A DNA stretch of 20,000 bases, taken from an uncultured virus (IMG/VR IMGVR_UViG_3300033463_000092) (taxonomy: Duplodnaviria > Heunggongvirae > Uroviricota > Caudoviricetes). Within the stretch, counting starts at the first letter, position 1. Every line of letters starts with the position of its first letter. Below the pieces are notes generated by a model. That model was not told where the DNA came from. It did no database searches and saw only the letters and a program-made list of their open reading frames with translations. Below are positions 1,107 through 16,781 of this stretch, piece by piece. The position numbers were made by a program, and so were the translations under genes. The stretch lies in the IMG/VR virus record IMGVR_UViG_3300033463_000092. One strand, written 5' to 3'.

Positions 1107-1292
1107 ATGAAAAAGTTCATCATCTCGGCTCATACTTTCCCCACCACCGGCGGCACAACTTGGTTCGTCCGAACCATCCCGGCTAAGACCAAAGAGCTTG
1201 CCATCAAGGCCTTCTTCGCTCACTTTGGCAAACTGAATGCCATCGATCGGATCGTCGAAGCCAAAGAAAACGGTGATCCGAGGAACGACTGA
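1107..1292 (+). CDS. Small protein, beta-beta-alpha-beta (I.A.T.E.A) superfamily
   Basis: TAAGGAG SD. Motif TIPAKTKELAIKAF. Confidence 0.8.
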   Translation: MKKFIISAHTFPTTGGTTWFVRTIPAKTKELAIKAFFAHFGKLNAIDRIVEAKENGDPRND

Positions 1293-1365
1293 TCTTGGTT
1301 TACTTTTCGGTCATCTCTGTTATATTTTAATATAACCACCAACCAAAAAGAAAGGAATTTCCACC

Positions 1366-1614
1366 ATGACCAAGAAGACCGCAATCATGAATTTCGTCGA
1401 AGAAAACGGTGGGACCGTTCGCCGTAAGGACCTGGTCCGCTTCATCTGCGAACTCAACGGAAATGTTTATGATCCCATCCTTCACCGCGGATATTACTCC
1501 GCCGCTCTCTGCCCCACTTCCATTTGGAGAGACGGTCATCTTCTCAAACCCTCCAAGAACGAACCCAGGTATTTGATCCGTTCCGGGCGTGGTCTCTACA
1601 CCGTCTGCCGTTAA
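1366..1614 (+). CDS. Putative winged-helix-like small protein, paralog of 12482-12736
   Basis: Promoter 1298 and SD. Shares KKTAI.NFVE, YDPI.HRGYYS.A.CPT and GHL..PSK..PRYL.R.G.G.YTV with its paralog. Confidence 0.85.
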   Translation: MTKKTAIMNFVEENGGTVRRKDLVRFICELNGNVYDPILHRGYYSAALCPTSIWRDGHLLKPSKNEPRYLIRSGRGLYTVCR

Positions 1615-1624
1615 TCACACAGTT

Positions 1625-1662
1625 AACTGGGAACTCAAAAGAGTTCCCAGTTCTTTCACTTT
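1625..1662 (+). terminator. Hairpin / probable intrinsic terminator
   Basis: 12-bp stem AACTGGGAACTC-aaaa-GAGTTCCCAGTT followed by a T-rich tail. Confidence 0.65.
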
Positions 1663-1686
1663 TACAAAGAAAGGGATCTCTTTATT

Positions 1687-1890
1687 ATGCTTTACAAAGT
1701 GTTTCTTGAATTTGATCATACCAAGACCTGGCTTCCTTACTCCAAAGAGGCTTTTGTGGAATTTGATCCTTCTTTACCCATAAGTGTTCCAACTCAGTTT
1801 TGGCGGTGGGTTTGGAAGCAGCATGGCAGCGATGTGGTCTCCGGAATGTGTTGGCCGGCCAAAGAAGAAGACAAACTTTCCGTAGGATAA
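1687..1890 (+). CDS. Hypothetical protein (67 aa)
   Basis: AAAGGG SD. Ends 4 nt before promoter 1895. Confidence 0.7.
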   Translation: MLYKVFLEFDHTKTWLPYSKEAFVEFDPSLPISVPTQFWRWVWKQHGSDVVSGMCWPAKEEDKLSVG

Positions 1891-1965
1891 TTCGGTTTAC
1901 TTTCTCGGACTTTTGGTTATACTATAATATCAACCACAACCAATCAAACCGAAAGGAAACTAAAT

Positions 1966-2223
1966 ATGATGTACTGTGTCGTCAAGAGCTGTCCCGGCGG
2001 GGATGTTTTTTACGGTCCCTATTCCTCTGTGGAGGATGCCGAAGCCTTCATCAAGGATGATGCCAAGGCGGAAAAGGCTTCCCTGATGGAGTATACTGTC
2101 AACGAGGAGACCGAGACCCACTTCCCCTTCTATCGGCTCACCCTGAAGCTCACCCAGCTCTGGGACGGAAAGCCCTTCTCCTGGAATTGGAATGTCCGTT
2201 TTCTCCTCCCTTCGGAGAAGTGA
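1966..2223 (+). CDS. Hypothetical protein, paralog of 8552-8842
   Basis: Promoter 1895 and SD. GPYSSVEDAEAFIK and FSWNWNVRFLLP vs GPFKTPEMAVKFIK and FRWEVKYLLNP. Confidence 0.85.
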   Translation: MMYCVVKSCPGGDVFYGPYSSVEDAEAFIKDDAKAEKASLMEYTVNEETETHFPFYRLTLKLTQLWDGKPFSWNWNVRFLLPSEK

Positions 2224-2245
2224 TTCTGCCAGAAAGGACTACAGA

Positions 2246-2416
2246 ATGCATACCTACCGCTTTATCTTCACCCTAGATGATGCTCCTTCTACCTACCATA
2301 GCGACATCCTTGCTTTCGACCGCAAAGAGGCTGGAAAGATGTGGAAGGAAGTCAAAGCCATGATACCTTTCAGCCGCCGCAGAGTCCACATCGTCAAAGT
2401 CATTCCTCTGTCTTGA
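2246..2416 (+). CDS. Small protein, YRF.F...DILA....A...W family (56 aa)
   Basis: AAAGGA SD. Starts MHTYRFIFTLDD. Paralogs at 6722(-), 8907, 16043 and 16572. Confidence 0.85.
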   Translation: MHTYRFIFTLDDAPSTYHSDILAFDRKEAGKMWKEVKAMIPFSRRRVHIVKVIPLS

Positions 2417-2491
2417 TATCTCTAAACTTGGTTTACTTTTTGATGGTTGAGGTTATATTATAATACAACCACTAATGAAAGGAACCTCAAA

Positions 2492-2632
2492 ATGAAGAAG
2501 ACCAAAGAGCACATCATGATCGACCTGGAAGTTCGTCACAGTTGGGGAAGCTGCCGTCCCTACACTCGGATTCACAAATCAAAGAAAGCCTACAACCGCA
2601 AGGACCATTCTTGGCGGAACATGGAGGACTGA
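2492..2632 (+). CDS. Small basic protein (46 aa), SWG...P.TRIH.SKK.YNRK family, paralog of 12850-12996
   Basis: Promoter 2431, SD and ATG 2492. High identity to the second copy. Confidence 0.85.
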   Translation: MKKTKEHIMIDLEVRHSWGSCRPYTRIHKSKKAYNRKDHSWRNMED

Positions 2633-2635
2633 AAA

Positions 2636-2851
2636 ATGGTAAAAATTGTTATCAATACCGAAGGAGCTGCTTTCGCCGATGCCGCAGGCAATTACACGAA
2701 CTTCTCTGTCAATTTGGAAGTAGCTGACATCCTCCGCAAGTTGGCGGATCGCTTGACTCTCGTCCCGGATGCCATGACAGGAAGAGAGGTTCCCATCATG
2801 GATGGAAACGGAAACAAGATCGGGACTTTCATCTCCACCAAAGAAGAATAG
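2636..2851 (+). CDS. Conserved-type phage hypothetical (I.T..AAF.D...E.A.ILR.LA...D.NGN.IG.F)
   Basis: GGAGG SD inside the upstream gene. The G of its TAG stop is the first base of promoter 2851. Confidence 0.85.
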   Translation: MVKIVINTEGAAFADAAGNYTNFSVNLEVADILRKLADRLTLVPDAMTGREVPIMDGNGNKIGTFISTKEE

Positions 2852-2884
2852 TTTACTTCTAAACAACTTCTGTTATAATAAAAT

Positions 2885-3159
2885 AAATCGGAATTCACTG
2901 AGTAGGTGGGATGGCCACTGGAAGGTGATTAAGAGAAAGTATCGCTCGTCTCATTAAAAGAGAGACCGTGACGTCCGCCATAAAGAGTGGAATGATTCGA
3001 CCAAGAGCCTCTACAGATTCTCTCCGATCTTTTTATCGGCAAAAGAGAGACCCGGGTCTCTTGAGCAGCGATTAGTGTAACGAAGAGAGCACACCAGTTC
3101 GGAAGCTGGAGGCGGAGGCGCAAACCCTTCATCGCATTTACGCTCTTGCCGATTTTTTT
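2885..3159 (+). ncRNA. Structured non-coding RNA (~270 nt) with a 3' tRNA-like cloverleaf
   Basis: Consensus promoter at 2851, but no AAAGGA-ATG follows. Helices include GTCTC/GAGAC, CCGAT/ATCGG within TCTCT/AGAGA, ATGGC/GCCAT and CAAGAG/CTCTTG. Cloverleaf at 3068-3135. Ends in T7. Confidence 0.7.
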
Positions 3160-3216
3160 GTTTACTTTTCAGTCATTCTTGTTATATTATAATACAACAA
3201 ATAAAAGGATATCAAA

Positions 3217-3489
3217 ATGAATCAGAAGCTCGCCGAAAGAATCCAATCCGAATTGCTGGAAAAAGAAAATCTTTTCAAATCCATTGACTCGCCATCCGAT
3301 CTCGTTCCTCTCCCTGTCCGCAAAGTTCTTTTCGACCAAGCTTGGTCAGACGGCCATGCTTACGGAGATCATGAAGTCACGGCTCTCTACGACAAGTACT
3401 TGGAGCTGCAGGAACATATCCAAGCATGGTATGCGGACTACGAGGACACTTGCAAAAAACTTCAAGCCGCTTCGGATCTGTGGAAGTAA
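3217..3489 (+). CDS. Phage hypothetical with AW.DGH.YG..EV motif (90 aa)
   Basis: Promoter 3160 and SD. Stop directly abuts promoter 3490. Confidence 0.85.
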   Translation: MNQKLAERIQSELLEKENLFKSIDSPSDLVPLPVRKVLFDQAWSDGHAYGDHEVTALYDKYLELQEHIQAWYADYEDTCKKLQAASDLWK

Positions 3490-3547
3490 GTTTACTTTTC
3501 GGACAAGTCTGTTATATTATAATATACCCAACGGAAAGGAATCTAAA

Positions 3548-3712
3548 ATGGCTAAGATCAAACGAATTTGCGGAAACTGCTGCTACATGGACACGAACAA
3601 CCACTGCTTCGCAGAAGGTACCGAAGGTTCTTCCGGCCCTTATCAGTGTGCTTGCGGTCTGTTTGATCCCTGGGACAATCCGAAGTACAGGGAGCAGCCC
3701 AAGGAAAAGTAA
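3548..3712 (+). CDS. Small Cys-rich, putative Zn-binding protein (54 aa)
   Basis: Promoter 3490 and SD. CGNCCY...HC...CAC..F pattern. Confidence 0.8.
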   Translation: MAKIKRICGNCCYMDTNNHCFAEGTEGSSGPYQCACGLFDPWDNPKYREQPKEK

Positions 3713-3722
3713 TCAGCTCTTT

Positions 3723-3751
3723 AGGACCGATCTAACCAATCGGTCCTTTTT
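3723..3751 (+). terminator. Intrinsic terminator abutting promoter 3756
   Basis: AGGACCGAT-loop-ATCGGTCCT-TTTT. Confidence 0.8.
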
Positions 3752-3817
3752 CTTGGTTTACTTTTCAGATAAATCCGTTATATTATAATATCAACAACAA
3801 CCGAAAGGAATCTAAAA

Positions 3818-4108
3818 ATGCTTCTCGCCAACAAAGCTTACATTCTCTTCAAAGCCACCTTCTCCGCCGATCCTTCGGTCACTCTGGAAGATCGGGAATA
3901 TCTTCCGCTCATCCGCCGTGCCAAACGGTACATTCTCGACCATTTGGCCAAGGAAAAGTCCTCTTTCACCATCACCGCTTCGGTTTGTTTCACTCCTCCC
4001 ACCCCGTCTCAGCCTCTGACCAAGATGTCCACCTTCGTCTATTACCCCGAGGGCAACCCCGCGGCGGTCAGTCTCCGCCAGCGTTTCTTCCTCGTCCCCG
4101 AACTTTAA
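3818..4108 (+). CDS. Hypothetical protein (96 aa)
   Basis: Promoter 3756 and SD. C-ending codon bias like its neighbours. Confidence 0.8.
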   Translation: MLLANKAYILFKATFSADPSVTLEDREYLPLIRRAKRYILDHLAKEKSSFTITASVCFTPPTPSQPLTKMSTFVYYPEGNPAAVSLRQRFFLVPEL

Positions 4109-4168
4109 GGTTTACTTTTCGGACAATCCTGTTATATTTTAATACAACTAACGGAAAGGATTACTTCA

Positions 4169-4387
4169 ATGCTTCACAAATTCGTCCTCACCTTCCACGT
4201 CAACACGGAATTCGGCAAGCGTCGTGACCATGCTATCGTCCTCGCTCTCAATCCTCAGGATGCCATCGAAAAGTTCAAAGAAAGGGTCCCCGGCATGGGG
4301 TACCTCTGGGGAAGCCATCACGTGGAGTCTTACTCCGCCTTCCTCGTCCTTCCCATTGAAAAGACCAGATTTGCCAAATGGGCCTGA
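4169..4387 (+). CDS. Small protein, V.A....DA superfamily (72 aa)
   Basis: Promoter 4110 and SD. IVLALNPQDAIEKF. Confidence 0.8.
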   Translation: MLHKFVLTFHVNTEFGKRRDHAIVLALNPQDAIEKFKERVPGMGYLWGSHHVESYSAFLVLPIEKTRFAKWA

Positions 4388-4465
4388 GGAATCGGTTTAC
4401 TTCCCAGACAATCCTGTTATATTGTAATATCCACAACAACCACCCCAACCGAAAGGAAACACACC

Positions 4466-4753
4466 ATGATCACCGCAAAATTCTATGTCATCACCAGGTT
4501 CTCCGTCATCAGAGACACCGTCTACAAGGTCAGCAGCGAACAGACCCCTTACTCCGACTTCGGTGAGGCCTACGAAGCCATGCGGCAGGAGGCAATGGAG
4601 TGGTTCAAAGCATTCTCCAATCCCACCGCTTGTTTGGAGAGTACGACCAACGGAATCATCTTCAAGTACCGGCTCCAGGGTATGAATCCCCGGGAGTGGG
4701 TGACCCACTCCGAGCAGTGGGTCCTTTCAGAGGTCGAAGCCCGCCTCTTTTGA
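4466..4753 (+). CDS. Hypothetical protein (95 aa)
   Basis: Promoter 4395 and SD. PYSDFGEAY motif is loosely like 1966, 8552 and 11536. Confidence 0.85.
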   Translation: MITAKFYVITRFSVIRDTVYKVSSEQTPYSDFGEAYEAMRQEAMEWFKAFSNPTACLESTTNGIIFKYRLQGMNPREWVTHSEQWVLSEVEARLF

Positions 4754-4766
4754 AAGAGACCAACCG

Positions 4767-4799
4767 AGGAGATCGGCTCCCCAACCGATCTCCTTGTTT
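4767..4799 (+). terminator. Hairpin fused to promoter 4796
   Basis: AGGAGATCGG-loop-CCGATCTCCT then TGTTTAC. Confidence 0.65.
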
Positions 4800-4860
4800 A
4801 CTTTTCGAACATCTCTGTTATATTATAATACAACCAACCGCCTAAACGAAAGGAGACTCT

Positions 4861-5109
4861 ATGGCTACCAACTATACCCGTCTCGAACGTTACATGATCG
4901 AAGCTTGTTTGAACGATGAACTTGATGTGATGTACGGCAACTTCACCGTAAACCAAGTGGAACGGATCACCGTGGATGCCTCTGACATCATCAAGAAGTG
5001 CACCCCGGAACTGTACGAGCGGTACTTCAAGGATTACTGCGAACGGAACTCCATCCTCATCAAAAGAGAATCCAATCAGACCATTTATCTGGAAGTCAAC
5101 CCAGATTGA
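4861..5109 (+). CDS. Hypothetical protein (82 aa)
   Basis: Promoter 4796 and AAAGGAG SD. Confidence 0.85.
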   Translation: MATNYTRLERYMIEACLNDELDVMYGNFTVNQVERITVDASDIIKKCTPELYERYFKDYCERNSILIKRESNQTIYLEVNPD

Positions 5110-5172
5110 GTTTTACTTTTTGAATTCAGGTGTTATATTATAACATCCACCAACCAAAAGGAAAAAGTGAAA

Positions 5173-5464
5173 ATGAGTGAAAAGATTCTTACCGTGAACC
5201 TGGATTCTTGTTGGTCCAACTCTGCTCGTGTGAAAATGTTTGTCGACCAGCTGAAGGACAAAAATGTCGAAGGGTCCTTCCACGATGGCGGAGATGACGG
5301 TTCCTCCTGGACTTTGAAAGGCACCAAAGAGAATCTGGTGAAAGCCATCAATGCCCATTGGCTTCTTAACGGTTTTTTATCCTCCAGAAGATGTGATGGA
5401 CCAAGAGACGATGAGTCTCCTCGGTTTTGAGGTTTCCAAAGAAGGCAAAATTGATCTGATGTAA
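5173..5464 (+). CDS. Hypothetical protein with an apparent +1 frameshift at T6 (5373-5378). As written the ORF stops at 5430.
   Basis: Promoter 5111 and SD. Removing one T gives ...GFYPPEDVMDQETMSLLGFEVSKEGKIDLM* ending at TAA 5462-5464, which overlaps the next SD. Confidence 0.65.
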
Positions 5465-5477
5465 GGAGTATCTTTCA

Positions 5478-5606
5478 ATGCACTTCATCATCATCTTTGC
5501 CGTTATCCTCGCTGCCGCTGCTATCATCTCCGTTGGAGTTAAAATGTATCAAGTCGAGAAGGCTTTTCGGCAGCAAACCAAAGAGAGCTCAATTCTCCAT
5601 TATTGA
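5478..5606 (+). CDS. 42-aa protein with an N-terminal TM helix
   Basis: TAAGGAG SD. MHFIIIFAVILAAAAIISVGVKMYQ... Confidence 0.75.
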   Translation: MHFIIIFAVILAAAAIISVGVKMYQVEKAFRQQTKESSILHY

Positions 5607-5624
5607 AGTTCTAAATCTAGACTT

Positions 5625-5656
5625 CGGCTTCACTTCAACCAAAGTGAAGCCGTTTC
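5625..5656 (+). terminator. Hairpin closing the first cassette block
   Basis: CGGCTTCACTT-caacca-AAGTGAAGCCG-TTT. Confidence 0.65.
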
Positions 5657-5784
5657 AGCTAACTTAAAGTTGAAACATCAAAGCTTAAGACACTAACTTT
5701 GTAGTTGTGATTGAAGTTTTCAACTTCTCTTTGAAATAGATTACTCCAAATTAAGTTCAGTGAAGCTTAAGTTCTGTCATCTAT

Positions 5785-5799
5785 TTTAGAATAAATAAT
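5785..5799 (+). promoter_or_regulatory. Putative late promoter (T4 TATAAATA-like)
   Basis: TTTAGAATAAATAAT, 30 nt before ATG 5829. The identical 15-mer occurs on - at 19486-19500. Confidence 0.7.
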
Positions 5800-5828
5800 T
5801 TCATGTTTTGAACTGAAGGAAAACTTAT

Positions 5829-6459
5829 ATGAAAGTTGATGACATATTCAAAAAAGTTTATTTGGAAAGCATTATCAAAGAATCTGCTGAAGAAGATGAA
5901 AACATGCACGGTGATATGGATGATGTTGATTTCAAGAATGGCAAAGATGAAGGCATAAAAGAGATAGATGCTAAATCAGGGTTTCGTTTTGGAGTTGACA
6001 ACTTTGGCAGATATTATATGACTGATAAGGATGGTCTTTGGAAGGATATGAAGATTGAACCTAAGACCAAAACTCAACTTGACGTCCAGAAAATTTTTGA
6101 TCAGAAAGTGAAAGAGCTTACAGAAGAAGATACTTGCTGTGAAGATGTGGATGATAGTAAAATCAACGTTGTGACATCAAGAAGCCTCGATGGTAAAGAA
6201 TACTTCTTAGGCAGCGATGGGGAGGATAACTTTTACTTTGCTGAATTTAGTCCAGATGGCTGGAAACAAATTTATGGAGTTAAAACCACTTTAGATGCTG
6301 AAAGCATGTTTGATAGAATGATTGAAAACTGCCACAAGCCTTGGGGGGGCAGATGACGAAGGTGATGATGAAAGTTATGGAGATGATGACGATGATTATG
6401 ATCCATATGAAGAATTAGCCAGTCAAGGTATCTTCCCAGGCCGTCATGATGATTGGTGA
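5829..6459 (+). CDS. Acidic late-type protein, possibly an internal virion protein, with an apparent frameshift at G7 (6343-6349). As written the ORF stops at 6356.
   Basis: AAGGA SD. N-terminus FKKVYLESIIKE. Two internal repeats. Removing one G continues as ADDEGDDESYGDDDDDYDPYEELASQGIFPGRHDDW** up to the terminator. Confidence 0.8.
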
Positions 6460-6480
6460 TAAAGTCAAAAATACGGATAT

Positions 6481-6513
6481 AAAAAAGGACCGGGTTCTTC
6501 CCGGTCCTTTTTT
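6481..6513. terminator. Bidirectional intrinsic terminator between convergent genes
   Basis: AAAAAAGGACCGGG-ttctt-CCCGGTCCTTTTTT. Confidence 0.9.
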
Positions 6514-6515
6514 GT

Positions 6516-6722
6516 TTAGATTGCGTTGGAAGGGATGACGATGTCACCCCAGACGATGGTAGGAGAGTCGGTCCGGACGGCGGAGAGCAGGGTGGGTTTC
6601 CCGAAGGATGCCTTGACGGCATTCCATTTTTTGGTGGCCTCCCGTTTGTTGGGAGCGAGGATGTCCTGCCAGTGGGTGGCCTTGGTGGTAGGGAGGGTGA
6701 AGAAGAAGCGGTAGAGTTTCAT
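6516..6722 (-). CDS. Small protein, YRF.F...DILA family (68 aa)
   Basis: Minus promoter 6785 and SD. MKLYRFFFTL...WQDILAPNKREATKKW. Confidence 0.88.
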   Translation of the reverse strand: MKLYRFFFTLPTTKATHWQDILAPNKREATKKWNAVKASFGKPTLLSAVRTDSPTIVWGDIVIPSNAI

Positions 6723-6917
6723 GAGGAGGTTCCTTTCGGTTGGTGGTTGATATTAAAATATAACGGGGAATCCAAGAAAGTAAACCAAGTTGTCTGAACT
6801 TTCAGGTTTACTATGAACACTTTTGGCCGCCCCTCGGGGTCGGCAGGGATTAAAAGGTCCTCCTTTGTTCCACTGGTTGATATTTTAATATAACAGATAG
6901 ATCAAAAAAGTAAACTG

Positions 6918-6949
6918 AAAAAAAAGGGACCGCCGCGGCGGTCCCTTTT
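6918..6949 (-). terminator. Intrinsic (possibly bidirectional) terminator abutting minus promoter 6915
   Basis: A8-GGGACCGCC-gc-GGCGGTCCC-TTTT. Confidence 0.8.
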
Positions 6950-6969
6950 GGAGAGCGGAGAGTTGGGCC

Positions 6970-7242
6970 TTAAAAGGAGATGAGACCCTCTTCGGCGAGA
7001 TTGCGGCCGTCGACCCTCACCAGGAGATAAATCTCCCTGGGGCCCACAAAAAAGTGAGACCGCCAAATTTCCGTGGGATTGGAGTTTTTGAGAGAGTTAC
7101 GGAGACTGAAGAGGGCTCTCCCGGCCTCGCGGAATCCCTTGATGGGCTCGCTCACCCATTTGAACTCCCTGTCCCAAAAGCCGCCGTTTTCGGGGAGAGT
7201 GATGTGGGAGATCCGATAGGTGTGAGTGTGAGTGTGTCTCAT
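6970..7242 (-). CDS. Hypothetical protein (90 aa, MRHTHTHTYRISH...)
   Basis: Minus promoter 7316 and AAAGGAG SD. Real start is internal to the 152-aa track ORF. Confidence 0.82.
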   Translation of the reverse strand: MRHTHTHTYRISHITLPENGGFWDREFKWVSEPIKGFREAGRALFSLRNSLKNSNPTEIWRSHFFVGPREIYLLVRVDGRNLAEEGLISF

Positions 7243-7414
7243 GTGAGTGACTCCTTTGTGTTGGTGATTGGTGGGAACCGATATTATATTATAACAGGGA
7301 GATCCGAAAAATAAACCAAGATCCCATACAAATTTTAGCGGCGATGATCGGTTTACGAACCCCGTATGTCTGTTATATTTCAATATCAACCACCCCAACC
7401 GAAAGGACTGCCAC

Positions 7415-7582
7415 ATGGAATTCCGCATTCTCTACTCCACCCCGCTCCTCGCCGCCGCCAATCAGCGCATCGAGGCCTACGTGAAGGCCGGCACCGAAGA
7501 GGCCGCGATGGCCGAACTTCGGTCTTGGTTCACCCCCGCTGAATGGTCCGAAGTGAAAATTCACAGGGTCAGGGTGGCCTAA
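7415..7582 (+). CDS. 55-aa protein, V.A.T.E.A superfamily with C-terminal RVR (T7 Gp2-like pattern)
   Basis: Promoter 7351 and SD. MEFRILYSTPLLAAANQRIEAYVKAGTEEAAMAELRSWFTPAEWSEVKIHRVRVA. Confidence 0.8.
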   Translation: MEFRILYSTPLLAAANQRIEAYVKAGTEEAAMAELRSWFTPAEWSEVKIHRVRVA

Positions 7583-7663
7583 CCCAACTTGGAAAAGACC
7601 AGGGGCTGCCCGCTTCGGCTCCTGGTCCACCTCTCAGACAATCTTATCGAAAGGAACCTCAAC

Positions 7664-7816
7664 ATGAAACGCATTCTCTTTGTCCTCCTGCTCATCGCTG
7701 CCGCTGTCTTCATCCAGACCGCTCCTCACTGCCTCACTTGGTTCGAAGCCATCCGTACTTGGGGTCTCGGTCTCTTGGCCGTGGTCTGCGGCTTCCTCGG
7801 AACGATCGGTGCCTAA
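7664..7816 (+). CDS. 50-aa two-TM membrane protein
   Basis: AAAGGA SD. MKRILFVLLLIAAAVF...GLGLLAVVCGFLGTIGA. Confidence 0.8.
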   Translation: MKRILFVLLLIAAAVFIQTAPHCLTWFEAIRTWGLGLLAVVCGFLGTIGA

Positions 7817-7889
7817 GAAACTCAGTTTACTTTTCCAACTTCTCAGTTATATTTCAATATCAACCACCACCAACGAAAGGAACACCAAA

Positions 7890-8321
7890 ATGAAGAAGCT
7901 CAACATCACCGTTCTCACCACTCTCTCCGTCGACGTCCGCCCCGCCGTCCAGGCCACCGTCAAGTCCGAAGCCGCCATGTGGAACTACCTTCGTCAGGTC
8001 CGGGACAACATCACGGACGAGGACCTCAAGGTCGGCATCCAGGCCATCGTCACCACCGAGGACGGGGCGGAATTCAAGAACATCATCTTCCGCCGCAACT
8101 CCAAGGGCAAGATCGAAATGCCGAACTCGGTCAAGGCCACTTGCCGCCGCCAGGTCGAAAAGGCCCGTAAGGCCGCCAAGGAAGCTGCCGAAAAGGCCGC
8201 CGCCAAGAAGGCCCGGAAGGCCGAGGCCAACCGTCGGTACCGCGAACGGAAGAAGGCTGCTGCCGCTGCCGCGACCGCCGCGGCGGTCGCTGCTGAAGAG
8301 GCTGTTCCGACCGAAGCCTAA
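7890..8321 (+). CDS. Basic protein with a Lys/Ala-rich helical tail (143 aa), paralog of 11943-12371, putative nucleic-acid binder
   Basis: Promoter 7825 and SD. KARKAAKEAAEKAAAKKARKAEANRRYRERKK. Confidence 0.9.
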   Translation: MKKLNITVLTTLSVDVRPAVQATVKSEAAMWNYLRQVRDNITDEDLKVGIQAIVTTEDGAEFKNIIFRRNSKGKIEMPNSVKATCRRQVEKARKAAKEAAEKAAAKKARKAEANRRYRERKKAAAAAATAAAVAAEEAVPTEA

Positions 8322-8337
8322 TACCTCCCCGCCTCCC

Positions 8338-8368
8338 AGAGGACCGACTCACCGTCGGTCCTCTTTTT
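8338..8368 (+). terminator. Intrinsic terminator
   Basis: AGAGGACCGAC-tcacc-GTCGGTCCTCT-TTTT. Confidence 0.85.
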
Positions 8369-9976: not shown

Positions 9977-10046
9977 GGTTTACTTTCTGGGATTCTCGGT
10001 TATATTTCAATATCAACAACAACCACCAACGAAAGGACCACCCACC

Positions 10047-10472
10047 ATGATCACCCTCGTCACCACCGCTCTCCCCGCTCCCTTCACCACCGAGACCGAT
10101 CTCCAGGTCAAATCCATCTCCGCCGCCTGGAATGCCATCCGGGCGCTCCGGGACGGAGCCGACCCTGCCGTTCTCAACGGAGTCACCCTCAAGGTTCTCT
10201 TGGACGAGCCCTCCGACCGCATCCCCGCCACCATCCGCTTCACCCTGAACTCCAAGGGAAAAATCGAATTCAAGGATGCCGCCAAGGTGTCCGCTCCCAA
10301 GGCTCCCAAGAAGGCCCAGAAGGCCGCCGCCACCGTCGTCGAGGAGGACGAAGACGACAGCTGGGACGACGAGCGGGGTCTCCGTCAGATGGAGGAAATG
10401 GCCGCCTACATCCACTCCGGGGCGGGCTTGGACAACTACTTCGCCGACCGAGATGCGGGGTTCGTGGAATAA
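10047..10472 (+). CDS. Chimeric protein: N-domain of the 7890/11943 family plus C-terminal MEEMAAYIHSGAG module (141 aa)
   Basis: Promoter 9978 and SD. VKS..AAWN..R.LRD and F..NSKGKIE motifs. Tail shared with 15364. Confidence 0.88.
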   Translation: MITLVTTALPAPFTTETDLQVKSISAAWNAIRALRDGADPAVLNGVTLKVLLDEPSDRIPATIRFTLNSKGKIEFKDAAKVSAPKAPKKAQKAAATVVEEDEDDSWDDERGLRQMEEMAAYIHSGAGLDNYFADRDAGFVE

Positions 10473-10486
10473 GTTTCCACACACCG

Positions 10487-10512
10487 AGGGGAGTCCGCGG
10501 CCTCCCCTTTTT
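10487..10512 (+). terminator. Intrinsic terminator
   Basis: AGGGGAG-loop-CTCCCCT-TTTT. Confidence 0.75.
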
Positions 10513-10678
10513 CTTCACATTAGAATGCATCCTCTGGATAGCTTCCTTTCCTGTCATATATTCCTTCGCCCTGTAGATCGGACAGCATCCTGGCTTTCTA
10601 GCAGCAGAGGTCATTTCCCAGTTTACGAACCTCTCATGCCTGTTATATTATAATACAATCAAACGAAAGGAACCCACA

Positions 10679-10855
10679 ATGCACACCTACCTCATCCCCT
10701 ACGTCGCCAAGAATGCCCGCACCAACAAGAAGGTGGAAGCCGTCTTTCGGATCCAGACCGTCAGCAAGGAAGCAGCGATGGATGCCTTCTCCGACTTCTA
10801 CTTCCAGCACCCCACCCTCGTCCAGGGAATGATCAAGCAGATCATCGAGGCCTGA
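10679..10855 (+). CDS. 58-aa protein, beta-beta-alpha-beta superfamily
   Basis: Promoter 10621 and SD. MHTYLIPY...FRIQTVSKEAAMDAF. Confidence 0.8.
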   Translation: MHTYLIPYVAKNARTNKKVEAVFRIQTVSKEAAMDAFSDFYFQHPTLVQGMIKQIIEA

Positions 10856-10868
10856 AGGAGAGGAAAAG

Positions 10869-11129
10869 ATGCCAACTTTCTTGATCATAGTCGTCTCCGT
10901 CTTCTTTCTCATCCTGTTCGCAAGCTTAAGAAGATGCTTTACCACATATAAGAACGTTTATGAAGATAAGACGAAGAGTGCTGTCCAACAACGGGCATCT
11001 TATCACGGACCTCACCCCAAAGAAAAACCCTATTTGAGTGGAGACATTGTGGAGTTCAAGCTGACCGTAAGGTCTGATCTTCAGATGAAAAGAATGACCG
11101 AGCTTGAAAAGAAGTTCTATTCTTTCTAA
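10869..11129 (+). CDS. N-terminally membrane-anchored protein (86 aa)
   Basis: AAGGAGAGG SD. Hydrophobic N-terminus. Confidence 0.75.
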   Translation: MPTFLIIVVSVFFLILFASLRRCFTTYKNVYEDKTKSAVQQRASYHGPHPKEKPYLSGDIVEFKLTVRSDLQMKRMTELEKKFYSF

Positions 11130-11168
11130 GACGATCGGATCGAAAGATAACTTCAAAGGAGAGAGAAG

Positions 11169-11468
11169 ATGAAGCAGAAAGCAATTACCGGCCTCTCTAC
11201 AGGCATAGTAGAACAGACCAATCCCAAAGCACTGTATGAGCTGATGGATCGGTGCACCACCGAAGCGAAGCACGTCCTCGCCCTTGCAGAAGGCTACAAA
11301 AGGACAATCCGTGCAGGAGAAGATACCTATTCCTGGGATGGGAGCCTGCACTTCTGGAAGATCGAAAGAGACAACGGGTTCTCGAACTACATACCTCTCG
11401 GGGTGGCAGAAGAGTCCCTTTCTCACCACCTCTTCAAAGGCGAAGACTGGTCCTGGAACCTCTGCTGA
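11169..11468 (+). CDS. Hypothetical protein (99 aa)
   Basis: AAAGGAG SD. Ends 5 nt before promoter 11474. Confidence 0.8.
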   Translation: MKQKAITGLSTGIVEQTNPKALYELMDRCTTEAKHVLALAEGYKRTIRAGEDTYSWDGSLHFWKIERDNGFSNYIPLGVAEESLSHHLFKGEDWSWNLC

Positions 11469-11535
11469 GATCGGTTTACTTTCTTAGACTCTCTGTTATA
11501 TTATAATATAACCAAACAAGAAAGGAACTCTTACA

Positions 11536-11868
11536 ATGGCCACTCAATACCGTGTCTTCCGCAATGTCGCCGTCCGTGCCAAGGACACCAAGGAACTTCT
11601 CCGCACCGAAACCGCTCTCTACGGTCTCTACGAGGACTGGGAGGAAGCCAGGAAGTTGGTCAAGGTCATCTCCAGGTCAAGGGAGCAAGTCCTCAAGGGT
11701 CAAGGTCTGGAAGTCAGGGTCCAATATCTCTTCCTCTTCGGCAGGGTCACTCTTCACTTCAACACTCTCTGGACCGAAGTCACCGTGACCTTCCAAGCCG
11801 TGAAGGAAGATCAGTTGGAAGATGCCATCAACAAGGCCAACGGGATCTGCTCCGAAAAGGAAGCCTAA
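11536..11868 (+). CDS. Hypothetical protein (110 aa)
   Basis: Promoter 11474 and SD. YGLYEDWEEA motif. Confidence 0.85.
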   Translation: MATQYRVFRNVAVRAKDTKELLRTETALYGLYEDWEEARKLVKVISRSREQVLKGQGLEVRVQYLFLFGRVTLHFNTLWTEVTVTFQAVKEDQLEDAINKANGICSEKEA

Positions 11869-11942
11869 AACTCAGTTTACAAGCTCAAGTTCTCTGTTAT
11901 AATATAATATCAACAACAACCACCAACGAAAGGAACACCAAA

Positions 11943-12371
11943 ATGAAGAAGCTCACCATCAAGTTCGAAAACATCAGCCGTCCGTATTCGCCGATGACGA
12001 TCTCCACCGTCAAGTCGGAAGCCGCCATGTGGAATCTCCTCCGCGAGGTCCGAGACAGCCTCACCGATGCCGACCTCGCCAACGCTCCGAAGGCTTTGGT
12101 TACCGACGAGGAAGGCAACCTCTTCAAGGACATCACCTTCAAGCGGAATGCCAAGGGCAAGATCGAGATGCCCAATGCCGTGAAGGCCACTTGCCGCAGG
12201 GCGGTGGAGAAAGCCCGTAAGGCCGCCAAGGAAGCCGCGGAGAAAGCCTCCGCCAAGAAGGCTCGGAAGGCCGAGGCCAACCGTCGGTACCGCGAACGGA
12301 AGAAGGCCGCCGCCGCTGCCGCCGCGGCCTGCAAGGAAGCAGCGGTCGAGGAAGCCACCCAGCAGAACTAA
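11943..12371 (+). CDS. Basic Lys/Ala-rich protein (142 aa), paralog of 7890-8321
   Basis: Promoter 11875 and SD. C-terminal half is near-identical to the paralog. Confidence 0.9.
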   Translation: MKKLTIKFENISRPYSPMTISTVKSEAAMWNLLREVRDSLTDADLANAPKALVTDEEGNLFKDITFKRNAKGKIEMPNAVKATCRRAVEKARKAAKEAAEKASAKKARKAEANRRYRERKKAAAAAAAACKEAAVEEATQQN

Positions 12372-12380
12372 CCTCCCCAC

Positions 12381-12418
12381 AACCGAGAACCGATGATCCC
12401 CGTCGGTTCTCGGTTTAC
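12381..12418 (+). terminator. Long hairpin whose 3' arm runs into promoter 12413
   Basis: AACCGAGAACCGA-loop-TCGGTTCTCGGTT(TAC). Confidence 0.7.
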
Positions 12419-12481
12419 TTTCAGCCATTCCCTGTTATATTGTAATATCCACCACCAATCAAACTGAAAGGACCGCCTACC

Positions 12482-12736
12482 ATGATGAAGAAGACTGCCA
12501 TCCTCAATTTCGTCGAATCCATGCCCAACCGCACCGCCACCCGTCGTGACATCGTGTCCTTCGTGCTCGGCATGAAAGGCATCACTTACGACCCGATCCG
12601 TCACCGCGGCTATTACAGTTGTGCCTTCTGTCCCACGGGTGATCCTCAGCACATCGGTCACCTCATTCGTCCTTCCAAGAAGGATCCTCGCTACCTCAAG
12701 CGGATCGGACACGGCATCTACACCGTGGCAGAGTAA
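12482..12736 (+). CDS. Putative winged-helix-like protein, paralog of 1366-1614
   Basis: Promoter 12413 and SD. Shared motifs as listed for 1366. Confidence 0.88.
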   Translation: MMKKTAILNFVESMPNRTATRRDIVSFVLGMKGITYDPIRHRGYYSCAFCPTGDPQHIGHLIRPSKKDPRYLKRIGHGIYTVAE

Positions 12737-12756
12737 CCTTTACCTCCACAGCCTCC

Positions 12757-12786
12757 AGGACCGATTTTTCACAGATCGGTCCTTTT
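12757..12786 (+). terminator. Intrinsic terminator abutting promoter 12791, same stem as 3723
   Basis: AGGACCGAT...ATCGGTCCTTTT then CTTGGTTTAC. Confidence 0.8.
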
Positions 12787-12849
12787 CTTGGTTTACTTTC
12801 TCGGACTTTCGGTTATATTTCAATACAACCAAAGGAAAGGAACCTCAAA

Positions 12850-12996
12850 ATGGCTAAGAAGCTCTCCATCAACCTCGACCAGATCGCCCTCGAAGCTCGC
12901 CGCTCCTGGGGCAGCTGCAAGCCCTGTACTCGGATCCACCGCTCCAAGAAGGACTACAACCGCAAGGACCGCTCTTGGCGGAATGACATCGACTGA
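12850..12996 (+). CDS. Small basic protein (48 aa), paralog of 2492-2632
   Basis: MAKKLSINLDQIALEARRSWGSCKPCTRIHRSKKDYNRKDRSWRNDID. Promoter 12791 and SD. Confidence 0.85.
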   Translation: MAKKLSINLDQIALEARRSWGSCKPCTRIHRSKKDYNRKDRSWRNDID

Positions 12997-13086
12997 CCCA
13001 GAGTCAAGTTTGGCAAGCAAGACTTGGTTTACTTTCTGAGACTTTCTGTTATATTTTAATACAACCAAACGAAAGGACCACCCACC

Positions 13087-13251
13087 ATGCTGAACTACCG
13101 CATCGCCTACCGCCTCACCACCGACCCCGTTCTCATCTCCGACCGCTTCATGGAGGTCACCGCTCCTTCCGCTTCCGAGGCCATGGCCGCGGCCGCCGAT
13201 CCTTCCCGTCTGCTCCTGGACTGCTGGGTCATCCGTCCCTCCGCCGACTGA
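13087..13251 (+). CDS. 54-aa protein, V.A.S..EA superfamily
   Basis: Promoter 13027 and SD. MLNYRIAY...MEVTAPSASEAMAAA. Confidence 0.8.
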   Translation: MLNYRIAYRLTTDPVLISDRFMEVTAPSASEAMAAAADPSRLLLDCWVIRPSAD

Positions 13252-13318
13252 GCGGAGGTTTTTCGGTTTACGAATCCTCAGTTTCTGTTATACTATAATA
13301 TAAGCTGCCGACGTAATC

Positions 13319-13401
13319 GCTAGTGTAGCTCAGCGGCAGAGCTGCCGAAAAGGCTAAACCCAGTTGGGTGAAGGTCGGAGGTTCGAGTCCTCTCACTAGC
13401 T
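13319..13401 (+). ncRNA. tRNA-like RNA lacking a canonical anticodon arm
   Basis: Acceptor GCTAGTG/CACTAGC, D arm GCTC-AGCGGCA-GAGC, T arm GGAGG-TTCGAGT-CCTCT. Middle is GCC-GAAAA-GGC plus ACCC-AGTT-GGGT. No CCA. Own promoter at 13266. Confidence 0.85.
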
Positions 13402-13441
13402 GGTCGGCGCCATTTACCACCCAATCGAAAGGGAACTCCTC

Positions 13442-13612
13442 ATGAAGATGAAGTTTGCTGTTTGTTTCAAGCCCATGACGAAGCCTGTTGAGGTCCTTGG
13501 TCGCTTCGATTCCCTGGAGGCAGCGGAACGACTTCTCCACTGGGAACAGACCAGTGCCCTCCTTGACCGTTCTTGGTATCGGTTCTACCACTTATACATC
13601 CAAGCTCTGTGA
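13442..13612 (+). CDS. 56-aa protein MKMKFAVCFKP...EVLGRF, tandem paralog of 13682
   Basis: AAAGGGA SD after the tRNA-like RNA. Stop abuts promoter 13613. Confidence 0.82.
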   Translation: MKMKFAVCFKPMTKPVEVLGRFDSLEAAERLLHWEQTSALLDRSWYRFYHLYIQAL

Positions 13613-13681
13613 GTTTACTTCTCAGACATCCCTGTTATAATATAATATCAACCACCACCCCAACCGAAAGGACCAAACACA

Positions 13682-13855
13682 ATGAAGTTCGCCGTCTGTT
13701 TCAAGCCCGTCATGCCCATGGACCCCATCGAGGTTCTCGGGCGCTTCGCCACCCGCAAGGAGGCAGAGGAATGCCTCAGCCAGGCGAAAGCCGCCGCCTG
13801 GGGCCACTGGTACAGGTACAACAGCCTGTACATCTACGAGTACGCCGCTCGGTAA
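13682..13855 (+). CDS. 57-aa protein MKFAVCFKP...EVLGRF...WYR...LYI
   Basis: Promoter 13613 and SD. Aligns with the upstream gene. Confidence 0.85.
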   Translation: MKFAVCFKPVMPMDPIEVLGRFATRKEAEECLSQAKAAAWGHWYRYNSLYIYEYAAR

Positions 13856-13860
13856 GCTTG

Positions 13861-13889
13861 AAGGCGGCCTTTGGAGGACCGCCTTTTTT
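13861..13889 (+). terminator. Intrinsic terminator
   Basis: AAGGCGG-loop-CCGCCTT-TTTT. Confidence 0.75.
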
Positions 13890-13974
13890 ATGCCTAGAAA
13901 CTTGGTTTACTTCTTAGACAATCCTGTTATATTTCAATATCAACAACAACCACCCAACCGAAAGGACTCTCGCC

Positions 13975-14175
13975 ATGATCTTCAAAGTCACTTACACGGT
14001 CGCCACTCCCAAAGCCACCCTCACCAAGACCATGCCGATCTCCGCGGACAGCTCCGACGAAGCAGGGCAGACCGTCCGCACCCTTATGGAAGCCACCTAT
14101 TGGAAGTGCCTCCACACCCAGGCCAAGGTCACCATCCTCTCCACGGTCCACTCTCATCTGATGGCTTTGGCCTAA
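13975..14175 (+). CDS. Small protein, PISA.S.EEA subfamily (66 aa)
   Basis: Promoter 13905 and SD. Paralog of 14254 and 14502. Confidence 0.88.
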   Translation: MIFKVTYTVATPKATLTKTMPISADSSDEAGQTVRTLMEATYWKCLHTQAKVTILSTVHSHLMALA

Positions 14176-14253
14176 ATCTCGGTTTACTTTCTGGGATTCT
14201 CGGTTATATTCCAATATCAACACCAACCACTCCAACCGAAAGGACCACCCACC

Positions 14254-14454
14254 ATGCTCTACCGTGTCACCCTCTGCATCGCCACCGCTTCCACCAACCG
14301 CGTCGAAGACCTCCCAATCTCGGCGGTCTCCCGGGAAGAGGCGGCCTCTTCCGCCAAGTCCTTCATGGAGTCCAAGTACTGGAACTCCTACCGCACCGAG
14401 GCGAAGGTGGAGGTCATCGCCATCGAACCTTCGCACCCCTCGGAATGGAGGTAA
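14254..14454 (+). CDS. Small protein, PISA.S.EEA subfamily (66 aa)
   Basis: Promoter 14182 and SD. PISAVSREEA...ME..YW....T.AKV shared with 13975. Confidence 0.88.
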   Translation: MLYRVTLCIATASTNRVEDLPISAVSREEAASSAKSFMESKYWNSYRTEAKVEVIAIEPSHPSEWR

Positions 14455-14501
14455 CCGCCTCCCTTTTCCACCTCAACCTCAACCCAGAAGGACCAGTCAC
14501 C

Positions 14502-14705
14502 ATGATGTACGACGTCACCATCTCTGTCACCACTCCTCACACCATGACCATCCGCACCGTTTCGATCCCCGCTGCCACCGAGGAGGAAGCCGGTGCAATG
14601 GCCTCTCTCTACATGGAGACCGCAATCTGTACTGAGAGCCCCACTCCAGTGGAGACCTCTATCATCTCGGTAGTCCCCAAACCTTCCATGCCTTTCAAGC
14701 ACTAG
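14502..14705 (+). CDS. Small protein, same subfamily (67 aa, MMYDVTISV...IPAATEEEA)
   Basis: AAGGA SD with a C/A-rich leader and no own -35. Confidence 0.82.
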   Translation: MMYDVTISVTTPHTMTIRTVSIPAATEEEAGAMASLYMETAICTESPTPVETSIISVVPKPSMPFKH

Positions 14706-14796
14706 AATGCACTGGAAGAAGGGTCGTGATCTTGGTTTACGATCCTTCTTTTCTTGTTATATTGTAAATATCCATCTAATCGAAAGGAACTCCGCT

Positions 14797-15015
14797 ATGA
14801 TGTACACCGTCACTCTTTCCGTCTCCTCGTCCGCCACCGGCACCTTCAAGTTCGCTGCTCACTCCGATGCCTGGGACGAGGAGGATGCCTGCCGAGATGC
14901 CGAAGTGAGGGTGAAGGACTACTTCCAGGAGCTCTATCCCACTTCCTCGGTGGAGGTCAGAGCCATTTCTGTCAGGAGAGGCTACTACTTCCCCGACGGT
15001 AAACCTCATCTCTGA
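14797..15015 (+). CDS. Small protein, same superfamily (72 aa, MMYTVTLSV...DAWDEEDA)
   Basis: Promoter 14735 and SD. Confidence 0.85.
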   Translation: MMYTVTLSVSSSATGTFKFAAHSDAWDEEDACRDAEVRVKDYFQELYPTSSVEVRAISVRRGYYFPDGKPHL

Positions 15016-15084
15016 GGTTTACGATCTTCCTTCTCTTGTTATATTTCAATACAGCTAATTCTAAACAGAAAGGACTTAAGTCAC

Positions 15085-15282
15085 ATGAAGCTCTATGATG
15101 TCACTTTCACTTACTCCGTCTTCGGTGCAAAGGAACATACCCGCACTCTTCAGGTCGCTGCCAGATGTGCAGCAGAAGCCCGTGACTGCTCCGACGGTCA
15201 GATCGCCGCCTACATCCTCAACCTCACTGGCACCTCTCCGGCCTTCTCGATCAAGTCCGTGGTTCCTTCCCAGGATATGTGA
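15085..15282 (+). CDS. Small protein, same superfamily (65 aa, LYDVTFTY...VAARCAAEA)
   Basis: Promoter 15017 and SD. Confidence 0.85.
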   Translation: MKLYDVTFTYSVFGAKEHTRTLQVAARCAAEARDCSDGQIAAYILNLTGTSPAFSIKSVVPSQDM

Positions 15283-15363
15283 GATTCTTGGTTTACTTTC
15301 TGGGATTCTCGGTTATATTTCAATATCAACACCACCACCTCTTAACGAAAGGAGATCCTCGTC

Positions 15364-15693
15364 ATGGCTAACTTCACCAAATTCTTCCGGAACGGCAAAA
15401 CCTTCTCCGCCTACTGCCGCATGCGGTACGGCCAGTCCAAGGAGATCTGGGCGGACACCACCCTGTGGCAGAAGTCCGGGGTCTATGCGATCGCCTTCGA
15501 CCAGGAGGCGGCCGATGCCAAGTTCGGCTGCCGTGAAAACGGCCTCAACCCTCTCAAGCCCCGCCATCGGGAGGCCGCCTTCGACGAGGAGAACTACCAA
15601 GAGCGGAAGATGGAGGAAATGGCCGCCTACATCCACTCCGGAGCGGGTCTTCAGGCCTACTACGAGGACCAGGAAGCGGGGTACACCTACTGA
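15364..15693 (+). CDS. Hypothetical protein (109 aa) with C-terminal MEEMAAYIHSGAG module
   Basis: Promoter 15291 and AAAGGAG SD. Tail shared with 10047. Confidence 0.88.
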   Translation: MANFTKFFRNGKTFSAYCRMRYGQSKEIWADTTLWQKSGVYAIAFDQEAADAKFGCRENGLNPLKPRHREAAFDEENYQERKMEEMAAYIHSGAGLQAYYEDQEAGYTY

Positions 15694-15765
15694 GGTGGAA
15701 GTCCCTGGGAGGTCTAAACGGCCTCCCAGCCTTCGTGCATTCCAGCCCATTCAAAGGAGATCAGA

Positions 15766-15975
15766 ATGATGAGAAAATTCTTCTTCAAAGCACTTCCATA
15801 TGCGGAAGCCGATCCGACAGAAATTCCACTCAGCCTCATACTGTCCCCACCAATCACGATGCATCTAGAGGCAGAGAACAAGGATGCAGCAGTCATTGCC
15901 TTCAAGAAGCTTTACCCTCATTCGTCGATCCTGACCGTCTTACCATGTCCGGCAAAAATCCCAGGAAAGCAGTGA
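15766..15975 (+). CDS. Small protein, L.A.N.D.A superfamily (69 aa)
   Basis: AAAGGAG SD. HLEAENKDAAVIAFKKLYP. Confidence 0.8.
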   Translation: MMRKFFFKALPYAEADPTEIPLSLILSPPITMHLEAENKDAAVIAFKKLYPHSSILTVLPCPAKIPGKQ

Positions 15976-16042
15976 AGATCGGTTTACTTTCTTAGACTCC
16001 CTGTTATATTATAATACAACCAAACAAGAAAGGAACCTCGCA

Positions 16043-16207
16043 ATGAACACTTACCGCTTCACCTTCTTCATCGACGACCCCGCCACCACCTACACCCACG
16101 ACTTCACCGCTCGGACCTTGGAATCCGCCACTTGGAAGTGGAAGCTCTTCTTCATCTACTACACCCTTCACCCCGCCACCCTCGTCAAGGTCAGCCTCCT
16201 TCACTGA
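16043..16207 (+). CDS. 54-aa protein, YRF.F family (MNTYRFTFFIDD...)
   Basis: Promoter 15982 and SD. Similar to 2246. Confidence 0.82.
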   Translation: MNTYRFTFFIDDPATTYTHDFTARTLESATWKWKLFFIYYTLHPATLVKVSLLH

Positions 16208-16303
16208 CCTTCACTGACCTTCCCTTTTCTCCCTTGGGAATCCCAGTTTACTTTCTGGGATTCTCTGTTATATTCTAATACAACCAAACGAAAGGACCTC
16301 ACA

Positions 16304-16477
16304 ATGGACACTCGCCACTCCTACCGTTTCACCTTCATCGATCCCATCACCAACCAGACCTACGAACTCCACACCATCCCGCAGCCGGACCTCCTCACCG
16401 CCATCAAGTTCCTCTACGGCCGGAACAAGGACCTCAACCAACTCCACCTCGTAGAGGTCAAGGAGATGGAGGACTAA
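16304..16477 (+). CDS. 57-aa protein (MDTRHSYRFTFIDP...)
   Basis: Promoter 16246 and SD. Confidence 0.82.
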   Translation: MDTRHSYRFTFIDPITNQTYELHTIPQPDLLTAIKFLYGRNKDLNQLHLVEVKEMED

Positions 16478-16571
16478 CCTCCAACCTCCGGGAACCGTGG
16501 TTTACGAATCACGGTTCCCTGTTATATTATAATATCAAACTCTCACTACTTCAACTGAAAGGACCCTCACC

Positions 16572-16781
16572 ATGCGTTACTACCGCTTCGTCTTCTCCCG
16601 CCCCAATTCGCCCGACATCTACTGGGAGGACATCCTCGCCCAGAACCAGAAGGCCGCCCGTGCGAAATGGACCCTCATCAAGGCCACCTACGGCTTCAAG
16701 GTCCGCCTCCTCTATGTCATCAGACCTGCGGCAAACACCACTCAGCTCCGCAATCTGGCCAATCTCTTCTACAACGCCTGA
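16572..16781 (+). CDS. Small protein, YRF.F...DILA family (69 aa)
   Basis: Promoter 16500 and SD. YWEDILAQNQKAARAKW. Confidence 0.88.
   Translation: MRYYRFVFSRPNSPDIYWEDILAQNQKAARAKWTLIKATYGFKVRLLYVIRPAANTTQLRNLANLFYNA

Follow-up and report, generated by a model that had tools for sequence, protein, structure and literature searches.

A set of small genes with a shared predicted scaffold in the promoter island of an uncultured gut phage

Gp2 of phage T7 binds the RNA polymerase jaw by extending the jaw sheet with its third strand and its helix; R56 and R58 are used in this contact, and inhibition needs an acidic strip (PMC3778932). A known look-alike of Gp2, the cellular subunit RpoY or epsilon (YkzG), binds a different polymerase site (10.1101/2021.06.06.447298); since epsilon shares the fold yet binds elsewhere, the target cannot be read off from the fold. 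SIRV2 carries 12 AcrID1 homologs, and anti-defence genes of archaeal viruses were recognisable by an early promoter that they have in common (PMC11065993); a review of jumbo phages notes few described anti-defence proteins among their many small open reading frames (ORFs) (PMC13282480). Here we analyse a stretch of 20,000 nucleotides (the window) of the uncultured Caudoviricetes record IMGVR_UViG_3300033463_000092, for which a first-pass annotation, made from the letters alone, had claimed more than 15 mini-proteins on one beta-beta-alpha-beta scaffold. The window holds 17 such ORFs, and three more members lie upstream of it; we give about an even chance to the reading that these roughly twenty diverged genes encode early-acting small inhibitors, each binding a different host or defence protein.

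Sequence signal, copy number and predicted fold

All 17 named starts open ATG-initiated ORFs of 54-72 amino acids; members are named by their start coordinates in the window and subfamilies are labelled A, B and B-like. The recurring core described for them, [IV]xAx[STND]xx[EDA]A in its strict form, is matched by 10 of the 17, the other seven carrying only variants. In a leave-one-out test with hidden Markov model (HMM) profiles, in which each protein was compared with 200 of its own shuffles, 13 members beat all shuffles, three beat 199, and the weakest, 16304, was reached by 4 of 200. When a whole subfamily was held out, eight of the nine members tested were reached by at most 2 of 200 shuffles, and 16304 by 15. 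The decoys for the profile tests were 67 other small ORFs of the virus record behind the window (G000), and four of these regularly scored high. Three of the four, at G000 47778, 48031 and 48761, emerged as further members upstream of the window; the fourth (6911-7075, minus strand) reached 10-12 bits with its motif late in the chain, and was regarded as doubtful and excluded from the count. The family thus totals 17 members in the window and three upstream, with clear paralogy confined to subfamilies A and B. The proposed copy of the module at the C-terminus of ORF 18336-18974 was also recovered, outscoring 500 of 500 shuffles with two profiles; the N-terminal part of this ORF is a paralog of ORF 19008-19457 (36% over 110 aa).

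The two subfamilies noted at the outset are real, although their description as tight was overstated, with within-subfamily BLAST identities of 29-50% and the motifs YRF.F..DILA..W and PISA.S.EEA exact in three of five and one of three copies, respectively. DNA likeness within subfamilies is limited to short patches, synonymous sites differ by 50-89% in six paralog pairs, and the median identity over all 136 protein pairs is 17%. One origin for the members is likely, though not established. Pfam, PHROG, NCBIfam and PADLOC gave no assignment at cut-off for the members: 13975 scored 13.2 bits against the DpnD/PcfM-like family (PF14207; cut-off 25) and 15085 scored 13.9 bits against DUF7644 (PF24651; cut-off 27). 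A PDC-M02A match of 13975 was rejected, as it involved 34 of 188 profile positions and was missing in a 95% identical relative. No homolog of 16304 was found in the protein database, and tblastn with a consensus-like outside member gave one weak match.

Copy number was compared using an outside profile of 14 proteins from beyond G000, partly chosen with the G000 profile and seven of them from related phages. At 10 bits or more, this profile detected 16 small ORFs in G000 and none in shuffles; among eight control records, it detected none in T4, T7, PA5oct, Totoro and G001 and one each in SPO1, phage G and RaK2. It misses Gp2 at 10 bits, and look-alikes such as Dmd are beyond the reach of a sequence-based count. 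A looser motif, which recovers Gp2 in T7, gave 15 matches in G000 against 0-2 in the controls. The first half of G000 (1-36,600) contains no family member. In the open-access literature we did not find a many-copy expansion of the Gp2/eL20 fold in one phage, although subscription papers and supplements may hold one. The scaffold itself is known and widespread, and it is the copy number that stands out.

Structure models cover three of the 17 members, one from each subfamily (14254 and 2246) and the weakest member, 16304. Far from falling into unrelated folds, the three agree on beta-beta-alpha-beta. The Atlas model of 14254 (predicted local distance difference test score, pLDDT, 0.82) matches an eL20 cluster at a template-modelling (TM) score of 0.78 and a cluster containing DpnD/PcfM at 0.64. 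The AlphaFold2 (AF2) model of 2246, built from a 20-row alignment that included other members, has a pLDDT of 89, with strands at residues 2-10, 16-23 and 44-52 and a helix at 26-38. Member 16304, listed at first only as a probable case, is the weakest by sequence yet shows the same fold when modelled without an alignment (best model pLDDT 85, other four 69-71; strands 5-13, 18-23 and 48-55, helices 30-40 and 42-46).

The models of 2246 and 16304 were searched against 48,161 solved chains. For both, eL20/LX ranks first (Z 6.6, root-mean-square deviation (rmsd) 2.5, and Z 6.3, rmsd 2.6, respectively, with 56 residues aligned in each), and Gp2 is also matched (2246 to 2wnm, Z 5.3, rmsd 2.4, 52 aligned; 16304 to 2lmc, Z 5.0, rmsd 3.4, 51 aligned), as are p56 (Z 4.7 and 5.0) and RNA polymerase epsilon (Z 4.3 and 4.0). 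Other matches of 2246 include PaaB (Z 5.8), PurS (5.3), AcrIE2 (5.0), AcrIC9 (4.2) and T4 Dmd (4.1). In Foldseek, Gp2 is the first PDB row for 2246 (E 0.084), and among the 50 matches listed from the BFVD predicted viral structures two are named RNA polymerase inhibitor. On the family profile, T7 Gp2 scores 8.8 bits against a best of 5.5 among 500 shuffles, and YkzG/epsilon (4njc) reaches E 0.47. As far as such models go, structural neighbours that include phage inhibitors of unrelated targets would fit a library of binders.

Promoter cassettes, relatives and the phage fragment

The promoter motif, GTTTAC-N14-19-GTTATA.T, occurs in 100 near-identical copies on G000, mostly followed by an A/C-rich linker and AAAGGA, and its strand polarity switches at G000 36.6 kb. 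Judged by its letters, it can be read as the -35 element, 17-base spacer and extended -10 element of a sigma-70-type promoter; it presumably resembles T4 early promoters, and the member genes would be expressed early. Family members account for 13 of the 32 genes that were called promoter-first in the window. Most members (13 of 17) do have their own promoter within 100 bases, as had been suggested; the remaining four are second cistrons (Table 1). All 17 have a Shine-Dalgarno-like site. One contig in each of the runs X6 and X7 carries 13 other letters in place of the promoter at window 14711-14791, whereby gene 14797 becomes a downstream cistron. Apparent joints between promoters were not taken as rearrangements, because promoter repeats cross-map.

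A promoter scan of metagenomes, covering 37 of 64 parts, returned 165 stretches. In the relative loci among them, 11 called genes reach 10 bits or more. Members 1107, 47778 and 48031 have orthologs in this group, locus L007 supplies two other proteins of subfamily A, the doubtful 6911 ORF is present once, and the rest are further members; at L007 7872-8267 (minus strand), a homolog of window ORF 4861 has the module fused ahead of it. The loci of a 52-kb relative gave no matches, though they possibly do not cover the island. A ratio of nonsynonymous to synonymous substitution rates (dN/dS) had been proposed as a check: the three ortholog pairs gave 0.24, 0.17 and 0.05, so the proteins are kept by purifying selection, and diversifying selection was not seen at the level of whole genes. 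Codon differences were drawn from the 40 listed out of 137 differences (22 in 14502 and 12 in 14797, with two in a promoter and four next to alignment gaps dropped); among those listed, 14502 has 12 silent versus 8 replacement codons and 14797 has 4 versus 7.

Among 1.84 billion representatives searched, 37 matched. Many of these are the members and orthologs themselves; the others are small proteins from outside the set and larger proteins with tandem copies, and several long repeat proteins among them look like chance. Tandem copies of the module occur in the unrelated proteins P0025, P0043, P0032 and P0039, one of which, a putative amidoligase (PF12224), carries two at its N-terminus. Net charge of the members runs from -4 to +8, and four of the five subfamily A members are net positive. 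The isoelectric point (pI) is about 10 for 1107, 2246, 6722 and 16572, while 14502, 13087, 14797 and 16304 are acidic. An RxR in the last strand is found in one of 17 members (7415) and is kept in two of its three relatives; 2246 has RRR at the start of its last strand.

G000 is 72,879 bases long, the window being its final 20 kb, and its completeness is estimated at 30%; the full genome is therefore probably of jumbo size. It encodes an NAD-dependent ligase, two RNA ligases, IF3, an AAA ATPase and a polynucleotide-kinase-like protein, as well as tRNAs. Its closest cultured-phage matches are distant (ligase below 30% identical, ATPase about 35% at best), and no close relative was found in IMG/VR scans, whereas the window stretch is present in bovine gut metagenomes of two further studies. 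Along the 30-70 kb promoter island of G000, GC content climbs from about 30% to 55%, and the third-position GC content (GC3) of member genes is as high as 0.89.

Table 1. Family members and related features of the window
Feature	Position	Strand	Length (aa)	Subfamily	Promoter and remarks
Promoter-cassette array	349..16535	.			GTTTAC-N14-19-GTTATA.T, A/C-rich linker, AAAGGA
1107	1107..1292	+	61		second cistron; basic; orthologs in relative loci L007 (91%) and L009 (54%)
2246	2246..2416	+	56	A	second cistron; AF2 model beta-beta-alpha-beta
4169	4169..4387	+	72		own promoter at 4110
6722	6516..6722	-	68	A	own minus-strand promoter at 6785
7415	7415..7582	+	55		own promoter; sole member with last-strand RxR like Gp2 R56/R58
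8907	8907..9113	+	68	A	own promoter
10679	10679..10855	+	58		own promoter
13087	13087..13251	+	54		own promoter; helix short
13975	13975..14175	+	66	B	own promoter
14254	14254..14454	+	66	B	own promoter; Atlas model matches eL20
14502	14502..14705	+	67	B	second cistron
14797	14797..15015	+	72	B-like	promoter absent from X6 and X7 contigs
15085	15085..15282	+	65	B-like	own promoter; weak phrog_2770 and DUF7644 matches
15766	15766..15975	+	69		second cistron without own promoter; long insertion between strands 1 and 2
16043	16043..16207	+	54	A variant	own promoter
16304	16304..16477	+	57		own promoter; weakest by sequence; single-sequence model has same fold
16572	16572..16781	+	69	A	own promoter; net charge +8
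Module in ORF 18336-18974	18390..18539	-			C-terminal domain, about aa 146-195 of 212

Several other features of the island were observed. A tRNA-like RNA lies at window 13319-13401 (plus strand) behind its own promoter (13266); it scores 43 bits with the Rfam tRNA model and is missed by ARAGORN, its acceptor, D and T arms fit, its anticodon and variable region (29 nt vs 18) misfit, and no CCA follows. A second multi-copy family, with a KSEAAMWN motif and an Ala/Lys-rich tail, is found at window 7890 and 11943 and G000 44096 and 47248, with distant copies at window 10047 and G000 48284 and many homologs in relatives. A third family (TAIMNFVE...HRGYYS) has four copies, at window 1366 and 12482 and G000 29680 and 38001, and the two copies scanned had no Pfam or PHROG match. 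Further look-alike small groups in the promoter island are 2492/12850, 13442/13682 and 1966/8552, the last together with G000 38343, 38680 and 46919. The proteins of 5829 (plus strand), 18974 and 19457 (both minus) begin with M-x-x-x-K-F-x-x-(V/I)-Y...I-x-E or similar, a pattern suggestive of the capsid-targeting sequences of T4-type phages; were they such signals, the module would enter the virion as part of the 18974 protein.

Inhibitor set or another role

A diversified library of small binders, such as anti-defence or host-takeover proteins, had been proposed for these genes from the outset. The common scaffold, the promoters, the diversified surfaces and the inhibitor-like fold speak for it; the closest structural match (eL20/LX), purifying selection and a common ancestry that is not established do not. 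Because the arginine pair of Gp2 is found only in 7415 and charges extend from -4 to +8, a range that fits different partners, the set is read as binders with different partners. On this model, the host polymerase would read the promoter motif as soon as the DNA has entered the cell. The core would be held together by the conserved aromatic, IxA and EA positions, with the edge strand beta-3 and the helix left available for partner docking, pictured as in Gp2, which extends the beta-prime jaw sheet (PMC3778932). The set may have grown through old duplications inside subfamilies A and B and through gain of further members. Cassettes would be gained, lost and re-wired, perhaps via recombination between promoter repeats, and relatives would therefore carry different member sets.

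Several results weigh against such a reading. The top-ranked eL20/LX is not an inhibitor; every Z is below 8 and, per the search tool, may reflect only a common arrangement; Foldseek gave no match reaching E 0.001; and at least 500 BFVD proteins match at E 10, nearly all of them uncharacterised. The profiles of subfamilies A and B match each other weakly (probability 30%, E 5.5e-4), and a tree of 44 rows is star-like, with 24 of 41 inner branches open, and does not resolve a single origin (a pairing of Gp2 with 13087 in this tree was treated as a long-branch join and not used). The dN/dS of neighbouring genes (0.02-0.41) encloses the member ratios, and no whole-gene diversifying selection is seen. 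The host was not found: the promoter pattern matched one phage-like contig binned in a Lachnospiraceae metagenome-assembled genome (MAG), this contig has no family matches, and the first 17.1 kb of the window gave only short matches (78-91% identity) to 401 Lachnospiraceae genomes.

Among the alternatives, binding of RNA or the ribosome in the manner of eL20/LX, steering host translation or RNA fate beside the phage IF3, tRNAs and RNA-repair enzymes, is unlikely in our estimate. It draws on the eL20/LX chains, which for both models take up the majority of the first nine rows, on the Atlas TM score, on the strongly basic members and on the IF3, two RNA ligases and polynucleotide-kinase-like protein of G000; however, differences of less than one Z unit amount to ties with Gp2 and PaaB, no member has a Pfam eL20 match at E 0.1, and since several members are acidic this role cannot cover the whole set. 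The 100 near-identical promoters, the other multi-copy small-gene families of the island and the repertoires that vary between relatives would also suit redundant cargo, in which cassettes multiply by promoter-repeat recombination and persist by weak or rare benefit, without a partner-specific division of labour. The ortholog dN/dS values and the excess of silent codons listed for 14502 argue otherwise, and because reading frames are intact and the paralogs are old by their synonymous sites, the genes appear to have been kept while diverging; we regard mere cargo as quite improbable.

It seems still less probable that paralogy ends with subfamilies A and B, the other members having been acquired separately or having converged on a simple fold that is common in phages, with unrelated functions. 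The low median identity and the star-like tree point that way, and an AI-designed TIM barrel also fits the profile in its strand-helix core, which makes the motif alone generic. Against this stand the leave-subfamily-out scores, which beat shuffles, and the comparison of subfamily A with outside proteins (93% profile probability); as control phages have 0-1 matches, some process must concentrate the fold here. We consider it highly improbable that most or all members inhibit RNA polymerase in the manner of Gp2, in versions adapted to different host strains or sigma factors. Gp2 and epsilon are among the structural matches and both score weakly on the profile, and the RxR of 7415 is retained in most of its relatives; but Gp2 needs R56/R58 and the acidic strip (PMC3778932), whereas most of subfamily A is basic and would thus lack a Gp2-type strip, as judged from net charge, and the phage promoters look dependent on the host polymerase. 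With the arginine pair in one of 17 and no PF16857 match at E 0.1 in any, the members are not Gp2-family proteins. For 7415, a complex predicted with residues 1149-1216 of the E. coli beta-prime jaw scored 0.01 (mark 0.32), which speaks neither for nor against binding.

Returning to inhibitors with separate partners, roughly twenty genes that lacked annotation, in an uncultured phage of the cattle gut, become one testable set, with a shared predicted scaffold and promoter and differing surfaces, in a fold that already includes inhibitors of RNA polymerase, uracil-DNA glycosylase, toxins and CRISPR. Distinct partners would provide pointers to new host targets, to the re-aiming of one 55-residue fold and to a natural small binder scaffold. 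A wider version, which we hold to be possible but doubtful, is that the fold is a general phage binding scaffold and that this lineage runs a natural mini-binder library. Its roughly twenty fixed variants would sit on swappable promoter cassettes, with the module attached to larger proteins as well, and each would have a target of its own among host defence and housekeeping proteins; on this view, Gp2, p56, Dmd and some anti-CRISPRs would each be a lone survivor of that strategy.

Comparison with described systems

T7 Gp2 (PF16857) resembles the members in its beta-beta-alpha-beta fold, which is predicted here, its size, an IxAxxxxEA core and weak profile similarity. The differences are that T7 has one true motif match, Gp2 itself, against about twenty here, and that the R56/R58 pair occurs in one of 17 members, none of which has the Pfam match at E 0.1 (Atlas feature score 0.78). 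The eL20/L18Ae/LX family (PF01775), the top structural match of both AF2 models and also matched by the Atlas model, shares 6-20% identity with members that are phage-encoded and of mixed surface charge, and again none of the 17 has a Pfam match at E 0.1. RpoY/epsilon is alike in structure (Z 4.0-4.3) and marginally in profile (E 0.47), with no Pfam or NCBIfam match of members. The small phage inhibitors phi29 p56, T4 Dmd, AcrIC9 and AcrIE2 have a similar sheet-plus-helix arrangement (Z 4.1-5.0), a likeness in structure at middling Z, with 2-13% identity and a separate target for each.

As sets of genes, two described cases come close. The LSm-like GoF, MotB.1 and Frd.2 of T4 are dissimilar early proteins of one phage with a common predicted small fold, but they number three and have another fold (PMC12152347). 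The AcrID1 homologs of SIRV2 number about a dozen. They are small, diverged paralogs within a single viral genome, most of them with one conserved early promoter and some without it, and mostly of unknown function (PMC11065993); they belong to an archaeal rudivirus and include one proven anti-CRISPR, whereas the locus described here belongs to a bacterial phage and has about twenty predicted members.

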